A stretch of 64,000 nt of DNA from Torpedo marmorata. Its lineage: Eukaryota. How positions within the stretch are numbered: the stretch's first letter is position 1; the number at the start of each line of letters is the position of its first letter. This document shows, piece by piece, positions 5,438-37,449 of the stretch. Location of the stretch: NCBI GenBank assembly GCA_977017645.1, contig CDRNVU010000047.1, positions 310,001 through 374,000 on the forward strand. The letters run 5' to 3'. A model generated the notes under the pieces. The model made no database searches, was not told the origin of the DNA, and saw nothing but the letters and a program-made list of their open reading frames with translations. A program made the position numbers and the translations under genes.

Positions 5438-5492
5438 ATGAGAGAGTACACAAATGTTCTTTACCCACTTATCACAGTCATCGGCATCCCTG
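5438..5492 (+). CDS. Exon 1 of a GPR139/GPR142-like GPCR (orphan; exon-2 partner uncertain)
   Basis: MREYTNVLYPLITVIGIP then G|GTAAGT (phase-1 donor at 5493). Aligns with exon 1 of the minus-strand paralog (YVARIYFPVIAAVGIP G|GTAAGA) at the identical intron position and phase. Confidence 0.7.
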
Positions 5493-6499
5493 GTAAGTAT
5501 GTCCCGCCACCGGGTAATTGTTGGGAATTCCGAGGTCCGGCTGTTCCTGTTGATGTGTCCATTGTGCTTCGTGTATTTGAGCCGTCATTTGTGGTTGTCA
5601 TTTCGTCCACCAACAGCGGGCGTCCAGTGACTGGTGGGTTCGCTGTGTATTTCTCCCAATGTGATATGTGGTATTTTTCAAAATGAACTCATTTATTTCG
5701 CTGAGTTCCGAGCAGAAGGCAGCGGTTCACTTTAAATTAATTGAACTGCAAAGTTTCAGCTCGTTGTCCAGGGATTTCCACGGAACATTCGGACCGGTTC
5801 CCACAATTGCCGGGTGCTGCGGTGCGATCACGTTTAATTATTTGAAGGACTTTCGCGTTTTTGTTGGGTCTTCAAAATGCAGCGAGTCAGCTGGAACATC
5901 CCCTGTCCGCAGCAACGTTAGTTTCCATCCAGGAAGATTCTCAATCCATCAAAGATATGCTCGTAATTAATCCGGTTCAGACAGAACACTGCTGACTTTA
6001 CACATTCCCGCATCGAATGCAAGTTTTGAACAGTTCATTTTCCCTATTTTTCAATATATTCTCTGGATATGGATGTCGATGACGATAGCGATATTCATTA
6101 TACATTCCAGTGTATCCCTGAACTCAGGATTCAGTTAAGAGGCATTCCTGTTGGTGAGTGCACAGCCAGGTGTACGCCAGAATGTTAAATCCGGTAGATT
6201 TCTTCCGTTAACGAAGCTGTGTTAAAATGTGTGAATTTTGGAAATCGCATGGATTAATGTTCACGGTCACAGACATTAACGTTCTTGAATGTGCACCCCC
6301 TCTTTGTCAAAGTTGTATTTTATCTCTGAGCCCTGGGTCGATAACCATCGTAATGTCACAGTCTTCTTCCACCAGAGTTGCTCCCCCCAGCAATTGATAA
6401 ACTGTTCAAGTTGAACTGTCAATCATGATCTGTCGAATAATATCATCAGCAATATTTATAACCAAAGTGTGATTTTGTATTTTTATTCAGGGGAAAATA

Positions 6500-7290
6500 A
6501 GTTGATCATTTCATTAACCTCCTCTATAAAATCTATAAGATTGGTTTAAAACGTCGAACCACGCACAAAGCCATGTTGAGTATTCATAATCAGTACCTGG
6601 CTATCTAAATGCTTGTATATCCGAATTCGTGGAACACCTTCCAATAATCTACCTACTACTGACTTCTGACTCACCGGACTCTTATTTGAAGGGTTACTTT
6701 TGGGATATTTTTAAGTAACGGAACAGTGAGCAATACCCTATCCCCTGCTACTATATATTGGAGTATTGTGCGTAATTCTGGTCGCCTCACTACAGGAAGG
6801 ATGTGGAGGCATTAGAAAGGGTGCAGAGGAGATTTACTATGAAGTTTAGGGAACATACCTTATGGAAACAGGTTGAGGGAACTAGGCCTTTTATCCTTGG
6901 AACGAAGGAGGATGAGAGGGGACGTGATTGAGGAGTTTAAGATGATAAGGGGCTTTGATCGTGAAGACAGTCAGAGGCTTTTCCCATGGGCCGAAATGGA
7001 TGCTACAAGGGGACACAGGGTTAAGGTGTTGGGAAGAAGGTACAGAGGAAATGTCAGAGGTACGTTTTTTACGCAAAGAGAGGTGGGTGCGTGGAATGAG
7101 TTGACGGCATCGGTGGTGGAGGCGGATTCTATAGGGACTTTTAAGAGACTTTTGGATAGGTTCATGGAGCGCAGAAATATAGAGGGATATAAGTAAGTCT
7201 TTCAATTCCAAGAGTAGTTATTTGTTCGGAACAACGTTGTGGGCCGAACGGCTGTATTGTGCTGCAGTATTTCTCTGATTCTATGATTCT
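6500..7290. mobile_element. CR1 LINE fragments (minus-strand RT piece 6500-6750, plus-strand 3' end 6755-7290)
   Basis: ORF 6873-7196 LLSLERRRMRGDVIEEFKMIRGFDR...FFTQREVGAWNEL; CR1 tail gggccgaacggctgtattgtgctg. Confidence 0.8.
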
Positions 7291-7419
7291 ACTACACCTG
7301 TGGCTAAAGAAATTAAAATATTTCTGCCAGAGCTCCTGAAATTTCTGCACCAGCCACCCTCATGGTCCGATGGAAGATTGCGTCAGGCCCTGGCGATATA
7401 TCCACCCTTTTTTTGTTTT

Positions 7420-7660
7420 AAAAAAATATGTCATGAAGCACGGTAACAGGCCATTTCGGCCCAGGAGTCCGTACCACCCCTTTTACACCCAATTACACAA
7501 CACCCCCGGTACGTTTTCAACGGTGGACGGAAGGCGGAGCCCCCGGGGAAAACCCACGCAGACACGGGAAGAACGTAGAGACTCCTTACAGACAGCGCTG
7601 GATTCGAAACCAGGTCCCAATCGCTGGCGGTGTAAAGACATTGTGCTAACCGTGCTGCCC
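7420..7660 (-). mobile_element. tRNA-derived V-SINE (HE1-like)
   Basis: Reverse complement of the SINE at 40838-41090: B-box ggtttcgaatcc, V-domain gtgtctgcgtgggttttccccggggg, CR1-like tail gggccgaaatggcctgttaccgtgct. Confidence 0.8.
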
Positions 7661-8340
7661 TTTAACCATGCTGTAAGACAGCAAACACATCCTCATCTTC
7701 AATCCGTATAGGTTCCATGACCTCACTTCTTGTTTTCCTTACTTTCCTCGAATCTGTGCCAGTTTCCTGAGCGAATACTGATACAACAAACCCATTTAAG
7801 ATCTCCCGCAACTTTATGGCTCCATACAAAGCCGGTCACTCTTAACTTCAAGGGGACAAATTGTGTTCCTTACCATTCGTTTGCACTTAATATACATATG
7901 GAAACCCTAAGGATTTTCCTTCACATTGTCTGCCGAAGCAACTTCATCTAATCTTTTAGCCTTCCTTCTTTCTTACTTGAGGTGCTTTCTTACATTTTAT
8001 ACACTCCTCATGTACCTCATCTGCTCCGCGATGCATAAACCTGCCAGACACCTCTCTTTTTTTCAGAATAGATCCCCACTTTCGCTCGAAAACAAAATTT
8101 CCCTATGCCTGATAACTTTGCATTTAATCCTGATAGGAACATACAAACTCTATACTTTCAATATTTCACCTTTTATGGTCTTCCACTTACCTCGCACATT
8201 CTTGACCGAAAACAACTTATCTCAACCCGCACATTCTAGATGTTTTCTAATTTCCTCAAAATTGGCCATTCTCCAATTTAGAATCTCAACACTAGGCACA
8301 GACCTATCCTTCTCCATGCTTAACATGAAAATAATGGCAT
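7660..8340 (-). mobile_element. CR1 ORF2 middle fragment
   Basis: Minus strand resembles the CR1 endonuclease-RT linker (also seen at 34400-34900); degenerate. Confidence 0.55.
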
Positions 8341-9550
8341 TTGTCTGTCTGGGTCGGTAGCAGAATGTCGAGCACCGTCGCGCCGAGCACCGGCGCACCT
8401 CAGGGACGTGTGTTCAGCCCGCTCATGTTCACGCTACTTAACCCCGACGGCATCACCATATCCTGCTCCAACAGTGACATCACGTTTGCTGATGACACAA
8501 CAGAAGTTGGTCTCATAAGCAACAACGATGAGTCGCACTACAGTGAAGAGGTGGAAAATCTCGTGAAATAGTGCGAGAGTATAAACCTGAGTCTCAACGT
8601 GGACAAGGCGAAGGAGATGATCTTGCACTTCAGGAGAACGAGGAATGACCAACCTCCACTATACATCAACTGCTCTCTTGTAGAGAGACTAGAGAGCACC
8701 ACGTTCCTTGGAGTTCACTAAACTAGTGACCTATCGTAGGCACTCACCATTTCCTCACTTGTCAGGAAGGCGCAACAGCGACTGCAATTCCTGAGAAGAC
8801 TGAAGCGCGCAAGGCTACCGGCCACCGATATGTCAATAGGAGCTAAACCGAGAGCGTTCTGGCCGGCTGTATCACAATGTGGGACGGTTGCTGCAGAGAA
8901 ATTGATCGGAGGTCAAGCCACAGGACAATTAGAGTGGCAGAAGGATAACTGGAGTCTCCCTCCCTCCATTGATCTGATCTACGGGGAGCGTTGTTTGAAG
9001 AGGGCGCGCAAAATCACTGAGGACCAATTCTGCCCTGCACACAGAATCTTTCAGCTGCTCCCGTCGGGGAAGATATACAGGAGTATCAGAGCCATCACCA
9101 CCAGGCTAAAGAACAGCTTCTTCCCACGGGCAGTGAGAATGTTGAACGATGAAAGGATCTGCTATCAATCCGAGACTCTCATTTGTANNNNNNNNNNNNN
9201 NNNNNNNNNNNNNNNNNNNNNNNNNNNNNNNNNNNNNNNNNNNNNNNNNNNNNNNNNNNNNNNNNNNNNNNNNNNNNNNNNNNNNNNNNNNNNNNNNNNN
9301 NNNNNNNNNNNNNNNNNNNNNNNNNNNNNNNNNNNNNNNNNNNNNNNNNNNNNNNNNNNNNNNNNNNNNNNNNNNNNNNNNNNNNNNNNNTTGTATCGAT
9401 AAAATGCATGCCCTTCATACCTATTGTTTGTCTGAATGTGTGTTATTTCTCTGTGTCTACACGTTTTGCGCCGAGGACCGGAGAACCTTGTTTCGTCGGG
9501 TTGTATTTGCACAATCAGATGACAATAAAGTGGACGACTCAACTTGACAT
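8341..9550 (+). mobile_element. Rex1/Babar-clade LINE, RT and 3' UTR (interrupted by assembly gap)
   Basis: STGAPQGRVFSPLMF, FADDTTEVGLISNNDESHY, FQLLPSGKIYRSIRAITTRLKNSFFPRAVR; tail gatgacaataaag at about 9518-9530. Confidence 0.85.
9188..9390. other. Assembly gap (N run)
   Basis: Run of N. Confidence 1.
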
Positions 9551-10385
9551 TATGATCACAGGACCAATATCCTCCCCTACGCATAATTCTGTCACCTGTC
9601 CTGTCCCATTCCCCGATAGCAGATCTAGCATTTCGCACTATATTGTTGGTACCTCCATATATTGATTTAGAAAACTTTCCGGAAAACATTTGACAAACTC
9701 CAAGCCATCTCGCCTTTTTACAGTATTGGAGCCCAAGTCAATATGTGAGTCAAAGTTAAATTCACCTACTTTCACAACATGTTTCCTGCAGCTGTCTGCT
9801 ATCTTTCTACAGATTTGCTCCTCCAAGTCTCGTTGACAATTGTTCGATCTATAATACAACTACATTAGTGTGGTCATACATGTCCCGTTCCTATGATCAT
9901 CGCATAAAACCTCAGTAGACGAGCCCTCTGTTCTGTCCTGCATGAGCACAGCTGTGATATTTTCACGGACGAGCAATGCCGCTCCTCCCCCTTTCATCCC
10001 CCAGCCCGTTCTATCGCGTCTGAAGCAACTGAAGCCCGTAACATTGAGCGGTCAGTCCTATCCCTCCTCCAAGGATGTTTCACGAATGTCCACAATTTCA
10101 TATTTCCACGTGCCAATCCACGCTCTAAGCTCGTGTGTTTTTCTGCAATACTCCTTACATTGAAATAGATGCACCTGAGAAAATTTGCACCGCGCACAAC
10201 ACATTGAATTGTAACGTTACATGCAATTTTCAAATTATATTTCTCCCATCCCATCCTCTATCTGCTCTGGCACTCTGGTTCCCACCCCCCTACAAATCCA
10301 ATTTAAATCTACCCCCTCCCCCCCGAGCAGCACCAGAAAACCTTATCGCAAGGTTATTACTCCCCCTCCAGTTTAGATTTCCGTA
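9550..10385 (-). mobile_element. CR1 LINE endonuclease region
   Basis: LRCIYFNVRSI; YYRSNNCQRDLEEQICRKI...VGEFN...FVKCFPESFLNQYMEVPT. Confidence 0.75.
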
Positions 10386-11765
10386 ATACAACAAATATAA
10401 AATACATCAGCAATATTTCGGGATCGAACCGTTCATGAAGGTATGGAAAAATATCGGCAGGCTCCCTATCAAAATGGTAGGGGGTTGAGGAGGGACCCAC
10501 ACGCAGGAGGTAATAGGTGGATGACGGAGAGAGGGCACAGCAGCAAGCAGGGGAAGGGGCATTGCTCTGTAAATAGAGAGAGAATGTGTGGAGAGCTGAG
10601 GGAAAGAAGACAAAGGGGAAAGGGAAGGTGGGAGAATGATTAGTAGGTTATCAGAAACCGGAGAAATCGATGTTAATGCCATCGGGTTGGAGAGAGCCGA
10701 GACGGAAAATCAAGTGTTGTTCCTCCAATTTACGGGTGGTCTGGGTGGAATAGTACATGACGTCTCGGACAGACATGTGAGCATTGGAGAGGGAGGTAGA
10801 ACTGAAATGGTTGGGCACTGGGAGGTCCCTGTCACTGGTGCAGACAGAGGTGCTCAGCGAAGCGACCTGCCAGTCTGTGCCCAGTCTCTCCGATGTAGAC
10901 AAGGCCACAACGGGAGCAGAAATGCAGTAAATAACTCAAGCGGATACACAAGTAATATGTTGCTTAACTTGAAAATACTGTTTGTGGTGAAAGAGGAGAT
11001 GGCGGCGCAAGTGTGGCACTTCCTGCTGCCACATGGGAAGGTGCTGGGCGGCGATTGGCGGGAGGGATAAGTGGATGTGGGGATCAAAGAGAGAGCGGTT
11101 CCTACGGAAGGCAGAGAAGGGAGGAGGGGGGAAGGTTTGTCTCGTAGTGGGATCATGTTGTTGATGGAGGAAATTACGGAGATAATATGTTGAATGCCGA
11201 GGCTGGTTGGGTTGGAGGTGAGGGTAAGTGGAATCCGTTGTTTGTTACTTCATGGGGTAGAGGGGGTTAGGCCAGATGAGCGAGAACTGTAGGATATACG
11301 GGTAAGGCCTGAATTTATGGTGGTGGAGGGGAGGCCACATTTGTGGAAGTAGTTGGACATTTCAGATGATGTGGACTGGATGACCTAATCTTGGGATCAG
11401 ATGAGGCGGAGATGGAGAAATTGCAAAAAGGGAATAGAATCGTTTCAGGCGAATGGGTGTGAGGAGGTGAAGTCGAGGTACTTGTGGCAGTTATTTGGTT
11501 TTTAAAATATGTCCGTCGAAAGCTTGTCTCCCGATATGGAGACAGAGAAATGAAGAGAGTGTTCTCTGTGATGGACCATGTGAATTTGAGATGGGGGTGG
11601 ATGTTGGCAGCGTAGGAAATGAAGTTGACGAGCTCATCACGAGTGCATGGTGTTGTCGTCAATATAGCGCGGTAAGAAATGAGGGGCTTTGCCTGTGTAG
11701 GCTTGTAGCATGGATTGTTCCACCAAGCCCACAGACAGGCAAGCATAGTTGGCACCCATGTTGGT
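10385..11765 (-). mobile_element. Penelope-like element (RT C-terminal/GIY-YIG region plus terminal repeat)
   Basis: RKLEEQHLIFRLGSLQPDGINIDFS C-terminal motif, HPHLKFTWSI RT motif, FPCGSRKCHTC zinc linker; degenerate. Confidence 0.8.
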
Positions 11766-11800
11766 ACACATTGCTACTCCTTTTATTTGTCGGAATGAGA

Positions 11801-12645
11801 TGTCAAATAGTACGTGCCCCCACTTTTTCAGTTCATTTTCATCTGTGTAGGACAGTCACTTTAAGAGAACAAATTTAGCAAACCCCTGCAGGCTTTGGAG
11901 AGTGACTGTGAACTGACAGCAGGCTGACAGCGTGTTCCTAAATTGGATAAATGTGAAGAGAGAGGAAGGGTCCCTGAAAAAAAACATGTGCAGAGACCAT
12001 GTGACCAACAGATTCAAGACTGAGTACACAGTTTTGCTCTGCGGCTATGTTGAGGAGGCAGTGCTGTGGAGCAGTGCTCATGGAAGTAATAAAGTACTGT
12101 AATGGCCTCGTGTGTGGTTATAGACAATCTTTTTGATTTCCCCATGTTACACGGGAATGAGATGTGGCCATTTTAAGGAGTCCGTACTTGGAAAAGCAAA
12201 CTTTGAAGGGTTACTATGCTGAATGTTGCCCAGTGTGGTGATAGACAATTTGTCTGATTTCTCCAGGTTATAGGGGAATGAGAATACCACTCTGTGACCA
12301 CAAAGTGAAGGTCGCCTTGATCGGCCGACCCGCGGAAAAGGTTCTGGAAGCAGAAGAAATACTGCGTTTTTATTGTGACAATTGTGAGGGTTACTTGAAT
12401 TCTGCTGACACACGGAAAGTGTTTTGGAAGCTTTGTGAGCATCACTCGCTTCGTGTCCCCTTCGCCAAAGAAGAGGTGAGTTTTGGTTGCACTCGTCTAA
12501 AAAGAACATTTCGCTGGAAGCTCCTCGGCAACATTTTTGTGAGTTAATAAACATTCTGTCACCCCCGGTCTCTGCTACCTACTTTTTGAACTGCTTCGCA
12601 TCCATCTAAAGCCTGCATGTCGATAGATTTTAAACCTGCGTGACA
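11801..12645 (+). mobile_element. Candidate LTR (Gypsy-like 5' LTR) followed by PBS-like AAATTGG
   Basis: Inverted termini TGTCA...TGACA, AATAAA near 12546, AAATTGG immediately 3'. Confidence 0.5.
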
Positions 12646-12844
12646 AAATTGGATGGTCCATTGCACAAATGTTGGAACTTGCGTTGGTGTAACAAGCGAT
12701 GAAAAAGGCAGAGATTCAGAAAATTATAGGGCACTGTTATGTAAGAGAAGGGAAGTTTGGAGAGGAGGAGGTTAAACAATTTCTCAAGAGTGAATCACGT
12801 GAGCAGCGGTCACCGGGGGAATAAATTGAATCAGAACAACATAG

Positions 12845-13505
12845 ATTGATAATAAGCAAAAAGTGTATTATTTAATACATTAAACTTTTCTTTCATTCTT
12901 TGAAAATAATAAATTTACAGCTTCAAAACAATCATTTATTTTTTTAATTCCTTTTTGAAACCAAGGTTTAAATAATTGGATGTCAATAGTAAATGGAATA
13001 AGTTTATTTTGATATAAAGGCATTTTCCGAGATTTTAACCCTTATCCTCCTATATCCCCATACATTTTATTCTATATTTATAACAGATGTTTTAAAATAG
13101 GAGAATTATTACCTTTCCTTAAAAATAATATAGAATTCCATTTATAAATAACGTCTTCTTTCAAATCCTCTCCTATATTATTTAATTCTCTTATAATCCA
13201 AGCAGAATATTTTCCTAAATAAACATTTCATTAATAAATTTTAATTGGGCTGCTTTATAATAATTTTGAAAATTGGGAAGTTATAAACCACACATTTCGT
13301 AATTCCAAGTTACTTTCTCCATACCTACTCTGGTCTACTTTCCCTTCCACAAAAATTTACTAATAATTAAATTTAAATCTTTGAAGAATTTTTGAGGAAT
13401 TTCATAAGGAATTGATTGAAAAGGATATTGAATTCTTGGAAAAACATTCATCTGAATAAAAGTTACCCTTCCTATTAAAGTTTTAGGTAAATCAATCCAA
13501 CTTTC
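12845..13505 (-). mobile_element. L1 ORF2 segment (inverted 5' part of an L1 copy)
   Basis: Same family as 1-450 (LIGRV, PQKFFKDLN, LPNFQNYYKAAQ); on the minus strand it ends at KEKFNVLNNTLFAYYQ near 12845. Confidence 0.8.
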
Positions 13506-13509
13506 TAAA

Positions 13510-14322
13510 TCGTTTAGAAATGTTTAGTTGAAAGGTTGGGTTATAGTTTAACTTTAACAAGACCAGGTGAATTGGAACTATCAGTTACTAATGGGGGTAT
13601 AAATACATTTATTTCTCAAATGTTTAGACTGCTACAGGAAAAAATGCCTAAACCAAGAATTCATAAATCAAGATTAAATTGGGAATCAGATTTGTCCAAG
13701 AATACATGCTTTTTGGCTGAAAGTTAAAAAGTTTAAAGACAACGTATTAAGAATGACACACCCAATGAATCCTATGATATTTTTGTTTGGAGATATTTAA
13801 ATAATTAATATTACAATGAGATTAAATATGTATTAAATAGAATTTTTGCGAATTGCTTTACATGTTTCAAAGAAATGCATTGCTATTACATGGAAATCTA
13901 ATGTAGATTTATGGTTAGAAAGATGGCATGCATAACTCCGTTCATGTATACCACTTGAAAAAATTACTTATAATTTACGTAACAAATATAATTTATTTTT
14001 GAAAATGTGGAGCCCATATATAAAGACTGTGGGTTTAAAGACTTGAGCATCTCTCTATATTAGGTCTGAATGGTGAATCGGTGTTCCATTATATAACCAA
14101 TATATAATAGTTTTTATTTAGACTGACATTCTCCAATTATTATCTCTTTTTTCCTTTTCTTTAATTCTAAACTATATTAGAGTCGTAGGGGTGGGTGGGT
14201 GAGGGAGGGGAAAGGGAAGGAGGGGAGGGTGAAAATATATCACATGTATTCTGATAATATAAATGTTATAAACACGTATTATCGTGTGATTTGAAATTTG
14301 AAATAAAATAAATAAAAATAAA
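13510..14322 (+). mobile_element. L1 ORF2 C-terminus, 3' UTR and A-rich tail
   Basis: FISQMFRLLQE...WESDL, KKCIAITWKS, CIPLEKITY; G-rich 3' UTR tract about 14187-14230; (AATAA)n tail 14300-14322. Confidence 0.8.
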
Positions 14323-14614
14323 CTTGTAGATTAATTATCTTTGTTTTTTATGACCCCATAGTCATTATTACTAGTAGTGTACTCCATACCCTGGCCAGAA
14401 GCCTTCATACGATGGGTTTTGATTATTAGATTAGTAATATATGGGTTTTTTATATTTTATTTTTCCATTTAATAGCATGGGTTCATATGTATCGTATTCA
14501 CTGTTATTTGATATTTGTAACGATATTAATTTACTTTATCATTATTACCATATGTACATATGTATTTGCATATGTTAAAACCAATAAGAAAATTGAAAGT
14601 GGGAAAAATGCAGA

Positions 14615-17600
14615 AGTACGTACTATTGCATCCCCCTTCCTGGTCTTGACTTGTACCGGCACGATTGAGAGTTTGCAGGTATCCTTACCGGCCCTGGTAA
14701 GGCCACTTGTCTGAACCGAGGCGATAACACTGTTTTCTGATGCTTCCTTTGTTTCTCTTTGCTCCTTTACCAGTTCCTTATTCCTTTGGTGAATATGCTG
14801 CATTCTTGGATGCTTCAAATTGCATATGTTACCGCTAAGTCGCTTCTTGCATTTTTTACTGATATGCCCTTTACACATACAGCCAAACCATACTCTATTT
14901 TCCTTTAAGAAAGCGATCTTCTCATTATGTTCCTTCTTTTCAAATTGTGAACACATTTCCAAAGCATTTCCACCTTGACAGAACAAACAACTCTTCTCAG
15001 CAGGCAAATTCTCCTTTTCTTCAGTTACTTTATCATTTCCCTTACTTACAATTGACACTGTTGTGGCAAAGGTGCCCCTTTTCAATTTCGGTCTAGGCTG
15101 TGAGTTGGAACTCCTTACATCTTCGCTCACTGTTGGAGTATACTTGATATTTCCAAATACTGGTACAGTTACGATCCGCACGTGCCATTCAAGGAACACC
15201 ACAATATCCTCAAAGGTAGCATTCTTTCTATGTTTTGTCTGAAGTTTACACTCTCCTGTTCTCCACAAATCCTTCAGCCTATAAGGTAATTTGCTTGTGC
15301 TGATTAATATATTAGAAAGTAAGTTAAGATCACGCATGCGATCGATATCTCCCATGGCATTATAACATCCTCTTAAAGAGAGGGCGAAAGCTTTTAAAGC
15401 CTTTTTATCCTCCGCTTTTATTGATCGCCATGAGAGAATCTTCTCCATATAAGCCATTTCAATTTTATTCTCATTGCTAAAACGATCTTGTTGCAATGCC
15501 TTTGCCTTTGTGAATCCACTTTCTGTATCCATATGCAGGCATATATTACAAGTTCCTTTGGCTGTCCTCCAGTGTACTGTTTCAGGTAATAAAGACGATC
15601 TCTGGCGTTTTTATTCTTACTTTCAAGATTCAAGATTCAAGATTCAATTTATTGTCACAGCAATAAGACAGTGTCATATACCACGAAATTTCTTTTTGCC
15701 TGCTCCAAGGCAGACAGATTTGCCATCGGCATAAATTGGCTAAGCGCCTCTAGCATTCCCTACAGTCAGATAAAGAGCAGCGAAGGAGAGTCCCCCCAGA
15801 GTCACCGAGTGTCCATAGATTCGCCGCCAGCGCTTCCACAGCCACACAGAGTCCAGTCCAAACGATCGGCATCCCGAGCTCCAGATCTGAACCCCCAACA
15901 CGGTCAGGTCGCCCTCGGCACCCCCTCACATCCCGGTTCCGATACCTGGTACTCCTCCAGCCAGTTCGAGCCAACCTCCAGCAGTCCACAGCCCGTCGTG
16001 AGACCCCCGACAGCAGTCTCCAACAGCCCACAACCTCCGCGGGTTCCTCGCCTCGAGTCGCCAGCAGCCCGCCGCATGCACTGGTCCTTCAGCCTCAGAG
16101 CCCCTCACCGGTCCGCCGCTGTGCTCACCGTCCTGTGGGTCGTCTCCTCCGCTTCTCCTTCTCAGACGGGGGTGATCTTCCCGTCCACTGGTGCCCTGCT
16201 CCAGTCCCCCGCTTCCCCGGAATCTGCAGCCCCTCGTGGCTGCTGCCGGTTAAAAGGCGCTGCCATCTTGGGCGCAGACCCCGTGGTCGCGGGATCTCAA
16301 ATAAAACCACCGTCGGCTCCTTTAACGGGACGTTCAAAGCCCGTGCGGAACCGACGGCAGTCTCTGGGCGGCTGGACCCCGCGGGAGCGCTGTATCTCGC
16401 TCCCACGCTCCTCGCGGGTCCGCACCAGCGGCAGCGCTGCCGCTACTGCGGCTCCGGCAGCACCGCCATCTTCAAAATATTTAATGAATGTTTGATACTG
16501 AAGTGGATCTCCGTTAACAAATTTGAATCGCCTTCTTGGGTAAGGAATAGAGACCTTGTTGCTGCATTAATAAAGCAGTAATTTCATTTTGTTTTGAAAT
16601 GATTGACAATATATTGTCTTGTTCACCGTGGCTTAAAGTTTGTACTGCAGCGGAAAACGTCACATGTCGTTCCTCACCCTGAATTTTATTACCTGACGGA
16701 CGTGAATAGAATTCTGGCACGACAGATTGAAATCCGCTCATATCTCTGTCTGAGGGGGTGATTATTAGTGTTCGAGCCCCGGCAACACCTTGCTCGGGGA
16801 GGATTTGTCCATGTACATTCATGCCTTGTGACCGTGGTACAAAAGCTTCTGCCTTAGCATCAAATACTCTCATTTCAAGTGACGACCTCTTACCAACCAT
16901 CGGACCTCTGAGATAGGTCGCTTCGAACAACAGATTCCTTTAAACTTGTCAGTACCTTCACTTCAGCCTTCTTTGCAAAATGTTTTGATTTCACATCCAA
17001 TTGTTCCCATTTTCACCTTCGCTCCAATTGCTGCTTCATTTTCTGCCTCCTCAGCTGTCCCTTCTGGTTCATTTTCTGCCTTTGTAGCTGCTCCTCCTCG
17101 TCCTCGAAGGCACATTTCTCATCAAGCACATCTTGTTGTGGTTGAAGAGCGACCAACTCAGCCTGAGCCTTTATATATGGAGATGAAGCACCTGAAGCGC
17201 GGGAAGCCCTGGAGCCCACATTGGAACTTGTTTTGCTTCTCCTGCTTCCAGCATTTGACACACTGTCTTCTGTATTTACTTCTGGTACGTCAGTTGCTGC
17301 CCGGAAATCTGACTCCTTTTCAAATTCGAATCGTACATCCTCTTCCCTTTCGTCCTCTTCGCCGGCACTTTGTGACACATCTTTAGCCATTACCGGACCA
17401 CTGACTCTAGAATCAGCTGACGTCAACTGCAGTGCTTTCACGGAGACATTACTCTCATCAACCGAAGCTGCCTCTACTCCTTCTTTAATTGCCAGCTTCA
17501 GTCTAGCGACGAGAGCACTTTTGTCCCCTGTTGTATCTCGCCCTCGTTGGCGCAGTTCTTTCATAAGTTCTGCCTTCTTCCACGTTTCGATACGTTGTGA

Positions 17601-19779: not shown

Positions 19780-19829
19780 CTACCCCTCACCTTATCCGTC
19801 TCACTGTTATGCTTCACCGTTTCTGGTTA

Positions 19830-27241: not shown

Positions 27242-27295
27242 CTTCAAGGAGAGGAAACAAAGGTATGAGTCAACCGCGCCAAACGTGTGCTGTTT

Positions 27296-30200
27296 AACTC
27301 GTGGTGGTCACACTAACATGCCCGGTATCGTGGTGTATGGAAACTCGTGGTGCTCACACTAACATGCCCGGTATCGTGGTGTATGGAAACTCGTGGTGCT
27401 CACACTAACATGCCCGGTATCGTGGTGTATGGAAACTCGTGGTGGTCACACTAACATGCCCGGTATCGTGGTGTATGGAAACTCGTGGTGCTCACACTAA
27501 CATGCCCGGTATCGTGGTGTATGGAAACTCGTGGTGCTCACACTAACATGCCAGGTATCGTGGTGTATGGAAACTCGTGGTGCTCACACTAACATGCCCG
27601 GTATCGTGGTGTATGGAAACTCGTGGTGCTCACACTAACATGCCCGGTATCGTGGTGTATGGAAACTCGTGGTGCTCACACTAACATGCCCGGTATCGTG
27701 GTGTATGGAAACTCGTGGTGCTCACACTAACATGCCCGGTATCGTGGTGTATGGAAACTCGTGGTAATCACACTAACATGCCCGGTATCGTGGTGTATGG
27801 AAACTCGTGGTGCTCACACTATCATGCCCGGTATCGTGGTGTATGGAAACTCGTGGTGCTCACACTAACATGCCCGGTATCGTGGTGTATGGAAACTCGT
27901 GGTGCTCACACTAACATGCCCGGTATCGTGGTGTATGGAAACTCGTGGTGCTCACACTAACATGCCCGGTATCGTGGTGTATGGAAACTCGTGGTGCTCA
28001 CACTAACATGCCCGGTATCGTGGTGTATGGAAACTCGTGGTGCTCACACTAACATGCCCGGTATCGTGGTGTGTGGAAACTCGTGGTGCTCACACTAACA
28101 TGCCAGGTATCGTGGTGTATGGAAACTCGTGGTGCTCACACTAACATGCCCGGTATCGTGGTGTATGGAAACTCGTGGTGCTCACACTAACATGCCCGGT
28201 ATCGTGGTGTATGGAAACTCGTGGTGCTCACACTAACATGCCCGGTATCGTGGTGTATGGAAACTCGTGGTGCTCACACTAACATGCCCGGTATCGTGGT
28301 GTATGGAAACTCGTGGTGCTCACACTAACATGCCCGGTATCGTGGTGTATGGAAACTCGTGGTGCTCACACTAACATGCCCGGTATCGTGGTGTATGGAA
28401 ACTCGTGGTGCTCACACTAACATGCCCGGTATCGTGGTGTATGGAAACTCGTGGTGCTCACACTAACATGCCCGGTATCGTGGTGTATGGAAATTCGTGG
28501 TGCTCACACTAACATGCCCGGTATCGTGGTGTATGGAAACTCGTGGTGCTCACACTAACATGCCCGGTATCGTGGTGTATGGAAACTCGTGGTGCTCACA
28601 CTAACATGCCCGGTATCGTGGTGTGTGGAAACTCGTGGTGCTCACACTAACATGCCAGGTATCGTGGTGTATGGAAACTCGTGGTGCTCACACTAACATG
28701 CCCGGTATCGTGGTGTATGGAAACTCGTGGTGCTCACACTAACATGCCCGGTATCGTGGTGTATGGAAACTCGTGGTGCTCACACTAACATGCCCGGTAT
28801 CGTGGTGTATGGAAACTCGTGGTGCTCACACTAACATGCCCGGTATCGTGGTGTATGGAAACTCGTGGTGCTCACACTAACATGCCCGGTATCGTGGTGT
28901 ATGGAAACTCGTGGTGCTCACACTAACATGCCCGGTATCGTGGTGTATGGAAACTCGTGGTGCTCACACTAACATGCCCGGTATCGTGGTGTATGGAAAC
29001 TCGTGGTGCTCACACTAACATGCCCGGTATCGTGGTGTATGGAAACTCGTGGTGCTCACACTAACATGCCCGGTATCGTGGTGTATGGAAACTCGTGGTG
29101 CTCACACTAACATGCCCGGTATCGTGGTGTATGGAAACTCGTGGTGCTCACACTAACATGCCCGGTATCGTGGTGTATGGAAACTCGTGGTGCTCACACT
29201 AACATGCCCGGTATCGTGGTGTCTGGAAACTCGTGGTGCTCACACTAACATGCCCGGTATCGTGGTGTATGGAAACTCGTGGTGCTCACACTAACATGCC
29301 CGGTATCGTGGTGTATGGAAACTCGTGGTGCTCACACTAACATGCCCTGTATCGTGGTGTGTGGAAACTCGTGGTGCTCACACTAACATGCCCGGTATCG
29401 TGGTGTATGGAAACTCGTGGTGCTCACACTAACATGCCCGGTATCGTGGTGTATGGAAACTCGTGGTGCTCACACTAACATGCCCGGTATCGTGGTGTAT
29501 GGAAACTCGTGGTGCTCACACTAACATGCCCGGTATCGTGGTGTATGGAAACTCGTGGTGCTCACACTAACATACCCGGTATCATGGTGTATGGAAACTC
29601 GTGGTGCTCACACTAACATGCCCGGTATCGTGGTGTATGGAAACTCGTGTTGCTCACACTAACATGCCCGGTATCGTGGTGTATGGAAACTCGTGGTGCT
29701 CACACTAACATGCCCGGTATCGTGGTGTATGGAAACTCGTGGTGCTCACACTAACATGCCCGGTATCTTGGTGTATGGAAACTCGTGGTGCTCACACTAA
29801 CATGCCCGGTATCGTGGTGTCTGGAAACTCGTGGTGCTCACACTAACATGCCCGGTATCGTGGTGTATGGAAACTCGTGGTGCTCACACTAACATGCCCG
29901 GTATCGTGGTGCATGGAAACTCGTGGTGCTCACACTAACATGCCCTGTATCGTGGTGTGTGGAAACTCGTGGTGCTCACACTAACATGCCCGGTATCGTG
30001 GTGTATGGAAACTCGTGGTGCTCACACTAACATGCCCGGTATCGTGGTGTATGGAAACTCGTGGTGCTCACACTAACATGCCCGGTATCGTGGTGTATGG
30101 AAACTCGTGGTGCTCACACTAACATGCCCTGTATCGTGGTGTATGGAAACTCGTGGTGCTCACACTAACATGCCCGGTATCGTGGTGTATGGAAACTCGT

Positions 30201-32078
30201 GGTGCTCACACTAACATACCCGGTATCATGGTGTATGGAAACTCGTGGTGCTCACACTAACATGCCCGGTATCGTGGTGTATGGAAACTCGTGGTGCTCA
30301 CACTAACATGCCCGGTATCGTGGTGTATGGAAACTCGTGGTGCTCACACTAACATGCCCGGTATCGTGGTGTATGGAAACTCGTGGTGCTCACACTAACA
30401 TGCCCGGTATCGTGGTGTATGGAAACTCGTGGTGCTCACACTAACATGCCCGGTATCGTGGTGTATGGAAACTCGTGGTGCTCACACTAACATGCCCGGT
30501 ATCGTGGTGTATGGAAACTCGTGGTGCTCACACTAACATGCCCGGTATCGTGGTGTATGGAAACTCGTGGTGCTCACACTAACATGCCCGGTATCGTGGT
30601 GTATGGAAACTCGTGGTGCTCACACTAATATGCCCGGTATCGTGGTGTATGGAAACTCGTGGTGCTCACACTAACATGCCCGGTATCGTGGTGTATGGAA
30701 ACTCGTGGTGCTCACACTAACATGCCCGGTATCGTGGTGTATGGAAACTCGTGGTGCTCACACTAACATGCCCGGTATCGTGGTGTATGGAAACTCGTGG
30801 TGCTCACACTAACATGCCCGGTATCGTGGTGTATGGAAACTCGTGGTGCTCACACTAACATGCCCGGTATCGTGGTGTATGGAAACTCGTGGTGCTCACA
30901 CTAACATGCCCGGTATCATGGTGTATGGAAACTCGTGGTGCTCACACTAACATGCCCGGTATCGTGGTGTATGGAAACTCGTGGTGCTCACACTAACATG
31001 CCCGGTATCGTGGTGTATGGAAACTCGTGGTGCTCACACTAACATGCCCGGTATCGTGGTGTATGGAAACTCGTGGTGCTCACACTAACATGCCCGGTAT
31101 CGTGGTGTATGGAAACTCGTGGTGCTCACACTAACATGCCCGGTATCGTGGTGTATGGAAACTCGTGGTGCTCACACTAACATGCCCGGTATCGTGGTGA
31201 ATGGAAACTCGTGGTGCTCACACTAACATGCCCGGTATCGTGGTGTATGGAAACTCGTGGTGCTCACACTAACATGCCCGGTATCGTGGTGTATGGAAAC
31301 TCGTGGTGCTCACACTAACATGCCCGGTATCGTGGTGAATGGAAACTCGTGGTGCTCACACTAACATGCCCGGTATCGTGGTGTATGGAAACTCGTGGTG
31401 CTCACACTAACATGCCCGGTATCGTGGTGTATGGAAACTCGTGGTGCTCACACTAACATGCCCGGTATCGTGGTGAATGGAAACTCGTGGTGCTCACACT
31501 AACATGCCCGGTATCGTGGTGTATGGAAACTCGTGGTGCTCACACTAACATGCCCGGTATCGTGGTGTATGGAAACTCGTGGTGCTCACACTAACATGCC
31601 CGGTATCGTGGTGTATGGAAACTCGTGGTGCTCACACTAACATGCCCGGTATCGTGGTGTATGGAAACTCGTGGTGCTCACACTAACATGCCCGGTATCG
31701 TGGTGTATGGAAACTCGTGGTGCTCACACTAACATGCCCGGTATCGTGGTGTATGGAAACTCGTGGTGCTCACACTAACATGCCCGGTATCGTGGTGTAT
31801 GGAAACTCGTGGTGCTCACACTAACATGCCCGGTATCGTGGTGTATGGAAACTCGTGGTGCTCACACTAACATGCCCGGTATCGTGGTGTATGGAAACTC
31901 GTGGTGCTCACACTAACATGCCCGGTATCGTGGTGTATGGAAACTCGTGGTGCTCACACTAACATGCCCGGTATCGTGGTGTATGGAAACTCGTGGTGCT
32001 CACACTAACATGCCCGGTATCGTGGTGTATGGAAACTCGTGGTGCTCACACTAACATGCCCGGTATCGTGGTGTATGG
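27296..32078. repeat. 46-bp minisatellite, about 104 copies, inside the GPCR intron
   Basis: Unit GGAAACTCGTGGTGCTCACACTAACATGCCCGGTATCGTGGTGTAT in head-to-tail copies with only sporadic substitutions and no spacers. Confidence 0.98.
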
Positions 32079-32478
32079 GTGCCCTTTACTCTGATCCTCT
32101 TTAGGACAAGGGTGGAGTACACGTCCACGTTTACAGGTTGTTGTTTCAAGGCCCGTCAAATTGGGAGCGGGCAATTGGACACTGCGGAGCAGCGTTGTGT
32201 CTCCGCTCTCTGATCTCCCGGGTCTGTACCACATGATGCGCTCCCATTACAGCATCGCCGACTGCGCCACTAACGTTTGTTCTGGATGAACCAAAATAAA
32301 TTATACAAAAATAAATAATATGTAAAGATCATAAAACAAATACATAAAACCAGAACATTTTGGAAACATTCACCAGATGAGGCAGCATCTGTGCTGGGTA
32401 TCAGAACTACATTTCTGCAGTGCAGCAGGAAATACATGTAAAGGGAACCACACGGATAGACCAGCTCCAGGATCTTAC

Positions 32479-32548
32479 CAGGGATACCGACTGCTGCAAT
32501 TACAGGGAAGTAAATTCTCGCAACGTAGTAAATTGCTGCATATCCCAT
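32479..32548 (-). CDS. Exon 1 of the intact GPR139/GPR142-like GPCR
   Basis: MGYAAIYYVARIYFPVIAAVGIP + G|GTAAGA phase-1 donor; joins in frame to 27241 giving GIPGNLMAIVIL (TM1 GN motif). Confidence 0.88.
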
Positions 32549-32622
32549 TTCCTGTGTGAGTTCGCGGTTAGTAGTTCAGCATCTTCCAATTGCCCTGGTA
32601 TATCAGTGATGAATTTTACAAG

Positions 32623-32728
32623 CTCTTATACAAGAGATAAATCAATCCACGGAGACAATTAATGTGACCAACCCCTCCACCGCATCAGTCACAACCCACT
32701 GAACAAACTATTTTTGCTCATTGCGTCA
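32623..32728 (-). promoter_or_regulatory. Candidate promoter of the intact GPCR (TATAAGAG; TGACGCAAT)
   Basis: TATAAGAG at 32630-32623, about 80 bp above the ATG; C/EBP-ATF hybrid site TGACGCAAT at 32728-32720. Confidence 0.35.
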
Positions 32729-32769
32729 CAGTGATGTTAGTCGTCAGGGGAGATCACGACAACTAGTTT

Positions 32770-33025
32770 TACAAGCGTTGTACTGTTTCTAGCGCAGGAC
32801 GCTTTGCGCTATTGGCGCACCAGCTGCCACTGTTAGAATCCGGCGATGTCTGAAAGCAGTTTGCAGGTTCTTCTTGTGACCTGCTTGAGTTTTCTCCGGG
32901 TTCTCCAGTTTCCTGCCACCCTCCAAATATCTACGGAGCTTGCAGGTTAATTGGTGTATTTGGGTGGCACGGGACCGTGGGACGAAAGGGGCGGTTAACG
33001 TCCTGTACCTCAATATTAGAAAAAT
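32770..33025 (+). mobile_element. Degenerate V-SINE
   Basis: Similar to 40838-41090 (gcaggttaattgg, ctccggg...ctccagtttcctgccacc, tail). Confidence 0.6.
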
Positions 33026-33089
33026 AATCAGTTTTGGAAATGGAACGTTGAAATTCTCAGTTGTGTGATTCCATGATCGAACAACAAAA

Positions 33090-35015
33090 ATAGAAAGACT
33101 TGTAGAGTATATGAGTTACTTGGACGCAATCACAGCTCGGAGTCAGGAAGATGTTAGCTGGGTGACAGTCAGGAGTGGGAAAGGGAACATGTTGTCAGTG
33201 TCGGGTACTTCAGTGGCCGCTTCTGTCAATAACACATACTCTTTGGACACTGTTTAGGGGGACGACCCACCAGGGTCAAGCCTCAGCGGTCAGGTATCTC
33301 GCATGGCGTCTGGATTTGTGGAATGAGGGGGAGGAGCAGAGGTCAGGTGTGGTAATAGGCGATTTGATAGCCAGGGGAACATACAAGAGGTTGTGCGGAA
33401 GAGGTAGAGAATCCAGGATGGTATGTTGCCTCCTGCCTGATGCCAGCGTCCGGGGCATTTTCCAGGGGGAGAAGGAACAGTCATTTATGAAGGTCCATGT
33501 AGGGACTACTGTCGTGCGGAAAAAGGATGACGCTGTCCTGCAAAGAAAGTTCAGAGAATTAGGCTCTGAGGTGAAGGACAGGACATTCAGGATTGAAATC
33601 TTAGTGTTGCCGCCGGTGTCACGTGCTAGTGAGATGAGCCAATGGAGAATAATACAGCCTCGCTTAACTGATTGTGCAGTAGGTAAGGCTTCATATTTAT
33701 GCATCATTGGGCTCTCTTCCAGGGTACCTGTGACCTTTACTGGCGGGAAATTTTGTTGGTGCTTTTTCGGATGTGTGTGTGTTAATTTATGCATTGGGGT
33801 GGTATCCAGAGCCCGAGAGCTTATAGTGGCGGGGAAGGGAAATATGATGTTCAGACTGCATTAAAACATAAATTAAAGATTTGTGCGTGGTGGAAAACAT
33901 GTTCGAAGCTGCATCTCCTTCAAAAAACGTACCGTGGGAGTAGGCTAATGGGGTGTACATTGGGCGGAACGGACTCGTGGCCTGAAATGGCATGTTACCG
34001 TGCTGTATGTACAAATTAAATTTAAAAATGCAAGGTGTGATGACGAACTTAGAGCATGGATTGGCACATGGAATTATTACATTGTGTCTACTCTATTGTA
34101 GACCACAATTTGTCAGTGAAAATTGGAGGAATATATCTGCCGAGAATTAGCAAATATCTGCGGGAAAGATAAAGACGTAATAGTAGGTGCATTTAACTTT
34201 CCACATCGCAACAGAGGTTCCCATACTTTATAGTTAGTGAAATGTGTTCATGAATGTTTTCCTAATCAATACGCAGACGTAACAAACAGAGAGAGTGCAA
34301 TACTGCAATAAGGGCCGAAGCAGGACAGGTGACACAAGAATGTGCAGCGGAACACTTCGTGGCATTGATCATAATGCCGCATGTTTTAAGCTAAATATGG
34401 ATAAGGACTGGTCCTCGGTTTAATATTCTAAATTGCAGATAGTCATTTTTTTAGGAATGGAGCAGGGATCGATGAGCGTGGATTCTCAAAACTGGTTTTC
34501 TGGTAAGTCTGTGCTCGGTATTGGAAGGCCTTGAATAAACACATTTTGAGAATATCGAGTTTGTATGTACCTTTCAGGAATAACTGCAAAGTTAAAAGGA
34601 TATTGGGGATCTGTTTTGGGTGAAGAGAGAGCTGTACAACTGGTAAATGCAACCAGGTGCAAATGAGGTGCTTGAGAAGTATAAAATGCCAGAATAAAGT
34701 AAAAAGGAAATCAGGACTAAACAAAGACATGAGGTTGATTTGGTATAAAATGTGATGGAGAATCCAACGGGCTTCTCAGAGATATTACGAGAAAAATAAT
34801 AATAAATATCCAAATTAGACCTCTTCATAAGTCGCCGGCTGTGTATGGAGCCAGAAGAGATGCGGAGACCAGAAATGGGTTTTTGCATATGGATTTAGCC
34901 GGGAAGCAGACACATAATCTTAGAAAGTAAGGTAAATAAAAAAAGGAAATGAGTTAATTGAACCCATACATAATAATAGAAATGGGTACTTGATGTCGTC
35001 GGGGGCTAGTGTATA
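33090..35015 (+). mobile_element. CR1 LINE ORF1 SGNH esterase plus ORF2 fragments (SINE tail inserted about 33890-34030)
   Basis: VVIGDLIARG...RESRMVCCLLPDASVR...VHVGTT resembles the esterase of CR1 ORF1; decayed endonuclease follows. Confidence 0.7.
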
Positions 35016-35017
35016 AA

Positions 35018-35155
35018 NNNNNNNNNNNNNNNNNNNNNNNNNNNNNNNNNNNNNNNNNNNNNNNNNNNNNNNNNNNNNNNNNNNNNNNNNNNNNNNNNNN
35101 NNNNNNNNNNNNNNNNNNNNNNNNNNNNNNNNNNNNNNNNNNNNNNNNNNNNNNN
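35018..35155. other. Assembly gap (N run)
   Basis: Run of N. Confidence 1.
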
Positions 35156-36485
35156 TGTGTTGACGGGGGATTGGAGAGAAGCTCATGATGTTCTGTTATT
35201 TGAAACGGTTACAAAATTACAGGAAATTATAGGCAGTGACAAGGAATTGCTGATTTAACCAGAGGCTACGTGTCAGAATTAACTGCTGGTTTGAAAGCGT
35301 TTGTTAAACTAACGTTCTTTGTTGCACTAATGCATCAAAAGGACGATCTCTATCCCTGCCCATCTTACAACTATAATCATTCATATATTTCTACACTAAT
35401 GCATCATAGATTAGTAGAAATAAAGTTTACCTGAACCATGAAGCACCAGAAAATATACTTTAAACAACTCAACCAGTCACTTTCTCCAGAACGACAACAT
35501 TTCGTTTACAGGTTCTGCCCACACACGGCCACACAGCGATCAACAGTGCTAGTGACGGTGAACCAAACAGTACAGTCAGTGGCGGCATAAAGCAGGAAAC
35601 CGTGGTATCGACACACGCGGACGTGATAAACGAACTCCCAAACCTTCGGGTAACCAGTCGGGATATTCTCCAAAATTACATCGTCTCACTGTCTTCACCT
35701 CAGCACTCCTTGAGGAGTCGGGGAATAAGGCATTCACCAGGATTCTAATTTTTGAAGCTTTAGGTGTTTCAGTCACCATGGAAATGTGACAATTTAATGG
35801 TTACGGTTTGGTAACTTTTACTCATATTGCTGAAAGAACATCTTTTGTTTCTTCAGACACTTAATTTGAGTATTATTAAGAGGAATCTTCAAGCTAAACA
35901 CAGATCTTGTTTGAAATGCTTAATAAACTTCCTAGAGTTTCATGATGTGATAGTTTATACCCGTTACAGTCGGCCATAATCCTTCCTATCGCTTCCGATT
36001 TTATGAAATAAAATCTAGATATTTCTCCGATATTGTTCAGCATTGCATCTGAGTCAGCCAACTTATTCAAGGCCACGACTGCAATGAAATCTCAACATGG
36101 GAGGTAAGAAGAATTGAACGGACGGGCACGTTTCCTATCTCAAAGTGATGAGACAATTGTCACATCGATCTCATGAAGACATTTATGAGAGTTCCCGTGG
36201 TGCTGGCGGCACATAACCCTCAGCCAACACAATGAAATCCTCTGTTTGTTACAATGATGCTGATGATTCGATACGTCGAATTTCATCCTGCTCAGCTAGA
36301 CGTTAAATATCGATTAGCATCGCTGCTTGTGGGCGTTAGAATGATTGGATTTACCAATGCTCCAGTAGTTCATCTGTTTAAAAGCTGGAGGACTCTACAA
36401 AAACCAATTTAACTACGTGTTTACGCATTAAATTCAATTGTCTTCTGTGTTTTTTTCACAATGCGACTGTCTGTTTCTTCCTCAG

Positions 36486-37449
36486 TAAACCTGGTGACAA
36501 TCGTCATTTTCCGCCGAGGAAACTGAGGTCTCTCCAGGTGTATCGCCCGCTATCTGGTGGCGATGGCTGCGGCGGATCTTATGGTGGTGATTATTCAAGT
36601 CCTGCTCTACCCGGAGATTCAAGCAAACCGATTCGATTTCAGGACTTCTGAATCAATTTTATACAACATATTCATCCTCCTTGACAAAGCTCCGTCCTAC
36701 CTTGTGGGCTGTGTCCTGAGTCACTTCATTGTTGATTGTTCCTTGTGGTTCGCGGTTGCTTTATCTTTCGATCGCTTTGTGGCGATTTGCTGGCCGGAGG
36801 TCAAGCCAAAATACTGCACTGCAAAACAAAATACGCGTGTGGTTATTGGCAAAATATGTATCGCATTCTGTTTAAAGAACATTCCTTTTTATTTTGTGCA
36901 TATAGGATCATCACGTGAGTCTGGAGAAGGGGATTGGATGTGGAACGGTAGACCAGTTCTTCCTATGACGGGAATATTTGATGGATTTTTTGGTGGACCG
37001 GATGTTGAAACCGCTACTCCCTCTCTTCCTCATTTTAACCCTCATTGCACTGACTGTCAGACAGATACTGGATGCGAGCAGAGTCCGAAGGGGGCTCCGG
37101 GGGCAGAGATATACCGAGAAATAACGGGCCCCCGGGATGGAGACCTGGAGACAATATACCATTCCGCTCTTCACCCTGTCGGCGAGTTTCCTTCTCTGCT
37201 GGGCGATAACACCGTGATCGTCATTCTCCGGCGCTGCCTCTACACGGAATGGAAACCTCCATGCGCCTTTACCGCGCAGATCGGGTGGGGTCTGTGATTC
37301 AGATTTTAAGATGCTGCACCAACACGTTGATTTACTGAGTGACCCAGAGAAAATTCAGAGAGCAACTGTTGATTGCGCTGCTCTCTCCGTTCATATGCCT
37401 GTTGCAATGGTCAGGCAGCTTACCTCGCGCGGGTGAACGTGTAAAGTAA
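36486..37449 (+). pseudogene. Disabled exon 2 of a GPR139/GPR142-like GPCR
   Basis: Acceptor ttcttcctcag|TA AAC CTG gives NLVTIVIFRRGN*GLSRCIARYLVAMAAADL, SLWFAVALSFDRFVAIC, PLLPLFLILTLIALTVRQI, NTLIY*VTQRKFREQL. TGA at 36524, frameshifts after about 36900 and further stops. Confidence 0.85.

Follow-up and report, generated by a model that had tools for sequence, protein, structure and literature searches.

Cartilaginous fishes carry a G protein-coupled receptor (GPCR) family that appears, from sequence comparisons, to be large and old and to have multiplied only in this lineage within the reach of our searches. Three of its copies, one intact and two dead, lie in the 64,000-nucleotide stretch of the Torpedo marmorata genome analyzed here (the window). 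The likeliest role of the family, which we propose tentatively, is in chemosensation, as a repertoire whose subfamilies are each predicted to have a small-molecule or peptide ligand of their own. The literature portrays cartilaginous fishes as GPCR-poor (PMC8455134). The family is as large as or larger than their olfactory receptor set (20-62 genes as given in PMC10869828) and has been hidden under one automatic label.

The intact gene, gene A, is a confirmed two-exon class A GPCR gene on the minus strand that encodes 322 aa. Exon 1 (32479..32548, minus) comprises the ATG, 23 codons and one base, ends in TM1 at a phase-1 GT donor, and gives the top match when the window is searched with an exon-1 profile built for the family (E 3e-7). 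The predicted intron (27242..32478, minus; 5,237 bp) has a GT donor and an AG acceptor behind a pyrimidine tract. A 46-bp satellite (27296..32078; 104 copies, 98% match) makes up 91% of it and stops 54 bases short of the acceptor. The frame of exon 2 (26343..27241, minus) is open to the stop and covers the end of TM1 to helix 8. A TATA-like hexamer (32625..32630, minus), 82 bases upstream of the ATG, is a candidate promoter by motif match only.

The product of gene A can be placed in class A (rhodopsin-like) by its sequence and predicted fold. It matches Pfam 7tm_1 (PF00001; E 1.8e-19), and this profile alone passes the cut-off; those for OR, TAAR, V1R, V2R, and T2R do not. N1.50, D2.50, the DRY-type R3.50, W6.48, Y7.53, and the TM3-ECL2 cysteines form a complete set. 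The structure model has seven helices (mean pLDDT 87.8), with an ECL2 predicted to fold as a hairpin of the peptide-receptor type. A Foldseek search with this model matched class A folds, with peptide receptors including C3aR on top and GPR139 absent among the 50 listed rows. Because E values across these rows are nearly level (4e-8 to 5e-7), the ranks fail to separate class A receptors, and the fold search was left out of family assignment. The N-terminus is very short. The motifs DRC and NTCIY, recorded by an earlier sequence-only reading as features of the intact protein, are present but are family traits rather than an oddity of gene A: they occur in 33 and 108 of the 120 closest relatives, respectively, and the NPxxY proline is missing family-wide. 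Cys3.25 is kept in all 120 of these relatives and the ECL2 cysteine in 119.

The same reading had reported several divergent paralog pieces within 32 kb, which we confirm as gene A and a broken gene B, together with a previously missed fragment C. Gene B exon 2 (36486..37449, plus) is pseudogenic, with stops at 36524, 37122, and 37336, frameshifts near 36992, 37203, and 37244, and a final stop that ends the exon at 37449. Its best piece is 38% identical to gene A (E 1e-22). It agrees with catshark protein P0171 in 153 of 305 columns, up to 37395, and is sister to P0171 in our tree at 100/99. An exon 1 at 5438..5492 (plus; 18 codons and one base, G|GT donor) had been taken as the orphan of a separate copy. 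The exon stands far above chance: against its own subfamily it scores 64, and no non-exon position exceeds 26 among the 127,888 positions of the six frames; the match to the general family exon-1 profile is weak (E 0.64). Twelve of its 18 residues equal the N-terminus of P0171, the best match among all collected proteins. Both exons find their match in one catshark subfamily and hence most probably belong to a single pseudogene, with exons 31 kb apart, rather than to two genes. The shared exon-1 ending with a G|GT donor holds for genes A and B.

The inferred intron of gene B (5493..36485, plus; 30,993 bp) would enclose gene A and fragment C, both antisense. It crosses two N gaps (9188-9390 and 35018-35155), so that its contiguity rests on the assembly. 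Fragment C (35407..35682, minus) is a TM2-TM4 remnant of a third subfamily with one stop at 35508; it shares 48 of 99 residues with zebra-shark P0160 and matches the family profile at E 3.6e-15. The copies, described earlier as tandem, are instead nested in opposite orientations, and the locus is crowded with satellites and repeats. No flanking marker gene was identified around it. No O/E motif of the olfactory type was found in about 1 kb upstream of exon 1 of either gene. A promoter common to genes A and B was rejected, as the upstream alignment score of 23 was equaled or exceeded in 69 of 200 shuffles. No 26-bp satellite was found upstream of exon 1.

Beyond the window, 3,172 candidates yielded 1,738 clusters (90% identity) of relatives at E<=1e-5. 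A species is named for 114 of the 120 matches listed, and all 114 are chondrichthyan (sharks or rays, 17 species). In the electric ray Narcine bancroftii, all 21 matches are distinct at 90% across the core (median identity 60%) and sit on contigs of 11 different sizes. These at least 21 copies, a lower bound, are far from one to three copies in 1:1 orthology with GPR139/GPR142. Subfamilies are common to sharks and rays, and a chimaera carries a family member. The full 322-aa frame is retained in many copies. Recent birth is seen in four catshark proteins, 89-97% identical, on a single contig. With the pseudogenes, these findings support birth-and-death turnover and uphold the proposed lineage-specific expansion. 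Metagenomes returned no relatives, only 78 pattern matches. We found no published description of this receptor radiation in the literature searched. GPR139 is not mentioned in the searched part (12 of 24) of the whale-shark paper supplements, nor in the sole supplement of PMC6504862.

By sequence, GPR139 is the nearest characterized relative, and the family appears to belong to the wider clade around it. A profile search of solved structures placed GPR139 (E 3.5e-30) ahead of NTSR1 (1e-22), making it the best solved relative by sequence. The family profile is nearer to GPR139, NTSR1, and GHSR than to chemokine or chemoattractant receptors, and Atlas neighbors include FMRFamide-receptor-like clusters. 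Databases name the family 'GPR139', and the closest PDB entry by sequence is human GPR139, both as expected of ordinary GPR139 or GPR142 orthologues sensing L-Trp and L-Phe. Those are class A orphan receptors, activated by these two amino acids and strongly conserved across species (PMC7318219). We nevertheless regard this explanation as almost certainly wrong. The match to human GPR139 scores 29 bits (E 6.5e-6), versus 105 bits for a salamander gene and 83 bits for a coelacanth gene, whereas GPR139 identity between human and zebrafish is 70% (PMC7318219). In alignment, Cys 3.25 and 12 ECL2 residues of the family are absent from GPR139. Only one of the six agonist-pocket residues of GPR139 (E3x32, F3x33, H5x43, W6x48, R6x51, N7x38) is kept in gene A, so that Trp/Phe sensing by this copy is not supported either. 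Judged by sequence, the family members are only distant relatives of GPR139 and not GPR139/142 orthologues; membership in GPR139/142 proper is not supported, and two further lines of vertebrate genes lie nearer to them than GPR139 does.

In a tree without any GPR139 or GPR142 sequence (a motif check found none among the 425 collected proteins), a branch at 97/91 sets 54 rows apart from the others. A 'probable GPR139' gene of amphibians and sturgeon (Xenopus tropicalis XP_031757816.1; Acipenser ruthenus RXM35349.1) is sister to the radiation at 100/95. It forms one cluster per species (20 clusters from amphibians, one from sturgeon). Restriction to cartilaginous fishes thus holds for the expansion and not for the family with its sister gene. 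A second conserved line, found with coelacanth XP_005988539.1, is low in copy number and includes shark orthologues of its own, which fall outside the radiation. Our guess is that it is GPR210A or B. Rinne et al. 2019 (PMC6504862) report that coelacanth, gar, and fishes have orphan subtypes of the GPR210A/B type adjoining GPR139/GPR142; sharks do not occur in the main text of that paper.

The predicted pocket varies widely among distant members. Pocket positions were assigned by class A numbering, as offsets from anchor residues and not from coordinates. Among 58 divergent members, entropy at 26 predicted pocket positions (2.66 bits) exceeds that at 38 further helix positions of the outer half (2.13; p=0.012). 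In single-copy relatives the order is reversed: 0.04 versus 0.39 in 22 amphibian proteins and, for the second conserved line, 0.63 versus 1.12 in 120 proteins. The outer half of the receptor is variable (entropy 2.4) and the inner, cytoplasmic half conserved (1.2). At the six GPR139 pocket sites, the 58 members show 56 combinations and the 22 amphibian proteins a single one. At most two of the six GPR139 residues are kept in the 120 close relatives, and at most three in the 58 divergent members. The pocket is not more variable in the 120 closest relatives (1.46 versus 1.58 at other outer positions, p=0.59). In 43 close pairs it differs slightly less than other outer positions (0.111 versus 0.137, p=0.047), which gives no support to ongoing positive selection on it. 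Inner-helix change in the same pairs is about half that of outer positions (0.065 versus 0.137). The varied predicted pockets suggest that the family members probably detect many different chemicals.

A chemosensory repertoire could have arisen from one orphan receptor that belonged to the GPR139/142 neighborhood and had a GPR139-like pocket. This state is probably still seen in amphibians and sturgeon, where each species has one copy. Duplication would have freed the pocket from constraint, and subfamilies would have taken different ligands while keeping a common signaling face. Scattered sensory cells, whether in olfactory epithelium or in skin, gill, or gut, may express the receptors, and coupling may be to Gq/11 by analogy with GPR139; both are guesses. 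Variable pockets likewise mark immune and nociceptive receptor families, which weakens the case for a chemosensory role. Catshark olfactory neurons, moreover, are already explained by V2Rs (PMC11979771).

The main rival, which we judge unlikely but a serious contender, is that the receptors, carried by leukocytes, mast-like cells, or sensory ganglia, are FPR- or MRGPR-like immune or nociceptive sensors of microbial or damage peptides. Copy turnover and pocket variation are equally expected of such sensors. The peptide-receptor hairpin predicted for ECL2, the conserved Cys3.25 and ECL2 cysteines, and the top fold matches also fit; those ranks, however, are nearly flat within class A, and the sequence profile points away from chemokine and chemoattractant receptors. 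MAS1 and its relatives are reported absent from cartilaginous fishes (PMC8455134), which may have left this niche open. Endogenous neuroendocrine or reproductive signaling in brain, gut, or gonad, in which each subfamily would respond to a hormone or metabolite of its own, is distinctly improbable. Receptors for a host's own ligands are usually few and keep their pocket, whereas this family has dozens of copies, pseudogenes, and nearly as many pocket combinations as divergent members. The invariant pocket of the single-copy sister gene is what an endogenous ligand would predict. GPR139 is expressed in brain and GPR142 in pancreas and gut (PMC7318219), and invertebrate neuropeptide receptors fall within the wider clade (PMC8514136). 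An expansion by largely neutral drift of copy number where repeats abound, with a few copies keeping the ancestral job and the others decaying, could account for the two dead copies of three in the window, the satellites and repeats throughout the locus, the numerous partial models in databases, and pocket change in close pairs no higher than at neighboring outer positions. It is very hard to reconcile with subfamilies common to sharks and rays and reaching a chimaera, with inner-helix positions that change half as often as outer ones, or with the many full-length frames.

The chemosensory reading has a more specific form, which we consider unlikely. The receptors would be a fifth olfactory receptor family of sharks, rays, and chimaeras, derived from a GPR139-related orphan gene that is single-copy in frogs and sturgeon, at least equal in size to the known olfactory receptor set, and expressed as one subfamily per neuron. 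Complete olfactory receptor genes number 20-62 in cartilaginous fishes, which nonetheless have many sensory neurons (PMC10869828; PMC10116579), a context that also favors a chemosensory role in general. If true, this proposal would resolve how large olfactory organs seemingly run on so few receptors. Whatever its tissue of expression, the family would give a key vertebrate lineage a large uncharacterized sensing system. In Xenopus, the sister gene, single-copy and with an invariant pocket, offers a tractable route to the ancestral ligand.

Among known systems, the amphibian and sturgeon sister gene shares with the family a short N-terminus, both cysteines, and a similar ICL3 motif, and is 28% identical to gene A; it differs in being single-copy, with an invariant pocket that keeps three of six GPR139 residues and has K for R at 6.51. 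GPR139 and GPR142, like the family, have two-exon genes but are highly conserved, in contrast to the expanded chondrichthyan family (PMC7318219). The aligned GPR139 also lacks the NPxxY proline. Its pocket reads E/F/H/W/R/N versus R/H/S/W/C/I in gene A, and it has no 3.25 cysteine and a shorter ECL2, whereas the family has both the cysteine and a longer ECL2. The second conserved line has a species range comparable to that of GPR210A/B. Birth-and-death evolution, a pocket that varies between subfamilies, and a conserved inner face are shared with OR, TAAR, V1R/ORA, V2R/OlfC, T2R, and FPR/MRGPR receptors, as is, except for V2R, the short N-terminus. Unlike OR, TAAR, V1R, and T2R receptors, the family matches none of their Pfam profiles, lies on another class A branch, and has an intron in TM1.

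The window is repeat-rich DNA of vertebrate type and encodes one intact receptor gene, gene A, on the minus strand. Its open frame (27269-26346) matches Pfam 7tm_1 (E 1.8e-19), which places the product among class A GPCRs. Gene A comprises a 70-base exon 1 (32548-32479) and an exon 2 (27241-26343), separated by a 5,237-bp GT-AG intron in phase 1. The 322-residue product, with the motifs DRC and NTCIY, is the intact gene that an earlier sequence-only reading had described. A 46-bp satellite (27296-32078), with 104 copies at 98% match, takes up 91% of the gene's only intron; its copies are highly homogeneous, and it stops 54 bases short of the splice acceptor.

Via tBLASTn and a family profile, we identified two exon-2 remnants besides gene A in the whole window, and no more. 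One (36486-37449, plus strand) carries three stops and three frameshifts, bearing out its description as pseudogenic. The other, overlooked by the sequence-only reading, is fragment C (35682-35407, minus strand), a remnant of a third subfamily that spans TM2-TM4 and has one stop. The closest relative of the pseudogenic exon 2 in a tree is the catshark protein P0171 (100/99). The P0171 N-terminus scores 64 (12 of 18 residues identical) at a plus-strand exon at 5438-5492; of 127,888 positions, the runner-up is gene A exon 1 with 34, and no other position exceeds 26. P0171 is also the top match of this exon among all collected proteins (64, next 55); the match to the general exon-1 profile is weak (E 0.64). 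Donor and acceptor joined in phase encode the same valine as P0171 at the junction. Because both pieces match the same protein and join in phase, we infer a single dead gene, gene B, whose intron would span 30,993 bp, and reassign to it the exon 1 previously considered an orphan. This intron would hold intact gene A and fragment C, both antisense. The gene B interval spans two N gaps, so it is possible that assembly placed together two separate half-genes. With gene B as one gene, the window has three paralogues from three subfamilies; the tandem arrangement proposed earlier is replaced by a nested one. A motif scan of the regions upstream of the gene A and gene B exon 1s found a TATA-like site at gene A and no O/E motif at either, and the two regions have no sequence in common.

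A 21-bp C-rich array (41324-58737, 17.4 kb) has 844 copies (92% match); one plus-strand frame runs for almost 12 kb with no stop, which follows from the sequence of the repeat unit and is no evidence of a gene. A 217-codon minus-strand frame (17016-17666) has a SAP domain (Pfam E 7e-8) and presumably resembles the beginning of a gag-type frame from a retrotransposon. Interspersed repeat pairs occur at 1-422 and 13090-13515 (85% identity) and at 17957-19194 and 20091-21286 (70% identity), and several interspersed copies contain frames that we take to be LINE-type reverse-transcriptase-like. A GC-rich stretch (60450-61100) containing 10 tandem copies of a 20-bp unit could be the CpG-island promoter of an adjoining gene; its 163-codon minus-strand frame has no Pfam match.

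The receptor family is real, large, and old, and apparently undescribed. Searching with the exon 2 protein identified 1,738 clusters (90% identity, E<=1e-5) among 3,172 candidates, a total that also counts isoforms and broken models. Among the best 120 clusters, the 114 with a species name are all from sharks or rays (17 species) and are all annotated as "probable" or "putative" GPR139. The closest sequence, at 80% identity, comes from the electric ray Narcine bancroftii, so a ray is the likely source of the window. Within these 120 only, proteins distinct at 90% over the core number at least 21 in Narcine (21/21), at least 19 in Mobula hypostoma (19/19), and at least 14 in Heterodontus (14/17). 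An unindexed search gave 97 representatives at 50% identity (E<=1e-30); 16 of the 17 looked up belonged to named chondrichthyans, one of them the chimaera Callorhinchus milii. Given 1,738 clusters from a few dozen annotated species, the data suggest tens to a hundred or more copies per genome. One contig carries four catshark proteins that are 89-97% identical. Divergent paralogues, these near-identical copies, and broken copies support the birth-and-death cluster previously proposed. Exon 1 is recognizable in just 43 of the 120 database models (P0001-P0120), which suggests that the tissues sampled for annotation provided few supporting transcripts, and many models carry unrelated N-termini. 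At the 5' end, the family's public gene models are thus largely wrong.

Two further vertebrate lines score above GPR139 against gene A: a salamander protein (105 bits) and a coelacanth protein (83 bits). The salamander search, word-limited in sensitivity, returned 25 matches (20 amphibian clusters with 20 different lead species, one sturgeon, and four chondrichthyans), with no teleost or amniote among them. The coelacanth search returned 145, the best 120 of which cover sharks, ray-finned fishes, amphibians, turtles, and squamates. This second conserved line may correspond to GPR210A/B (PMC6504862). Two of its members (P0278 and P0376; shark, frog) bear the name "transmembrane protein 183A isoform", suggesting that in these two animals the gene adjoins or sits inside TMEM183A, which could serve as a marker of synteny. 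P0258 (anchovy) and P0262 form long branches close to this line and may be further GPR139-like subtypes. In a tree of 80 rows, rooted on seven distant proteins (one a named annelid) and built from sequences other than GPR139 and GPR142, the chondrichthyan radiation (54 rows, 13 without confirmed species; 97/91) has the gene of amphibians and sturgeon as its sister group (100/95), and the second conserved line falls outside.

Pocket positions are predicted ones, assigned by general class A numbering counted from anchor residues. Across 58 divergent members (54 chosen from 150 rows of the unindexed search, all near full length, and four from the salamander search), helix variability is 2.4 bits in the outer half versus 1.2 in the inner half. 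Variability at the predicted pocket sites is above that at the other outer sites (2.66 versus 2.13, p=0.012, with sites that are not independent of one another); in both single-copy lines the order is inverted (0.04 versus 0.39; 0.63 versus 1.12). The 120 closest relatives have no pocket excess (1.46 versus 1.58, p=0.59), and in disjoint close pairs, which mix paralogues with cross-species orthologues, pocket change is slightly below that of outer neighbours (43 pairs, 0.111 versus 0.137; 63 pairs, 0.299 versus 0.322).

A fair reading is that constraint on the pocket was relaxed after duplication. Subfamilies would then bind different ligands while keeping one signalling face in common, possibly coupled to Gq/11 by analogy with GPR139 (PMC12775434). 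The pattern is consistent with a sensor repertoire and does not indicate a cell type. External chemosensation is plausible, at a little under an even chance, because known olfactory genes are few (20-62) in these animals, which are rich in sensory neurons (PMC10869828 and PMC10116579); in the catshark, V2Rs already account for much of olfaction (PMC11979771). Immune or nociceptive sensing would be the main, less likely alternative, endogenous signalling is improbable, and drift alone is very doubtful.

No description of the expansion was found by title and abstract in the literature, with subscription papers and supplements partly covered. The term "GPR" is absent from the main texts of four genome or repertoire papers, including PMC11979771, PMC10869828, and the whale shark paper; the latter (PMC8455134) reports a relative paucity of GPCRs. 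In PMC12294341, GPR139 appears in a reference only. The automatic GPR139 name has concealed a large old receptor family.

By sequence, gene A matches human GPR139 best among PDB entries, yet at 29 bits; the human and zebrafish versions of that receptor share 70% identity (PMC7318219). Structure-model fold matches are to assorted peptide receptors, with flat scores. Of the six GPR139 agonist-pocket sites described in PMC7318219 and transferred by alignment, gene A retains one residue, W6.48. The amphibian gene retains F, W, and N, with K replacing R, in 22/22 proteins. Given the low score, the single pocket residue, and the two closer lines, membership of the family in GPR139/GPR142 proper is not supported. 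GPR139 and GPR142 themselves group with invertebrate MIP and FMRFamide-type receptors (PMC8514136). Both the TM3 and the ECL2 cysteine are present in the family, whose ECL2 is predicted to form a hairpin; GPR139 has no 3.25 cysteine, and its ECL2 is shorter by 12 residues.
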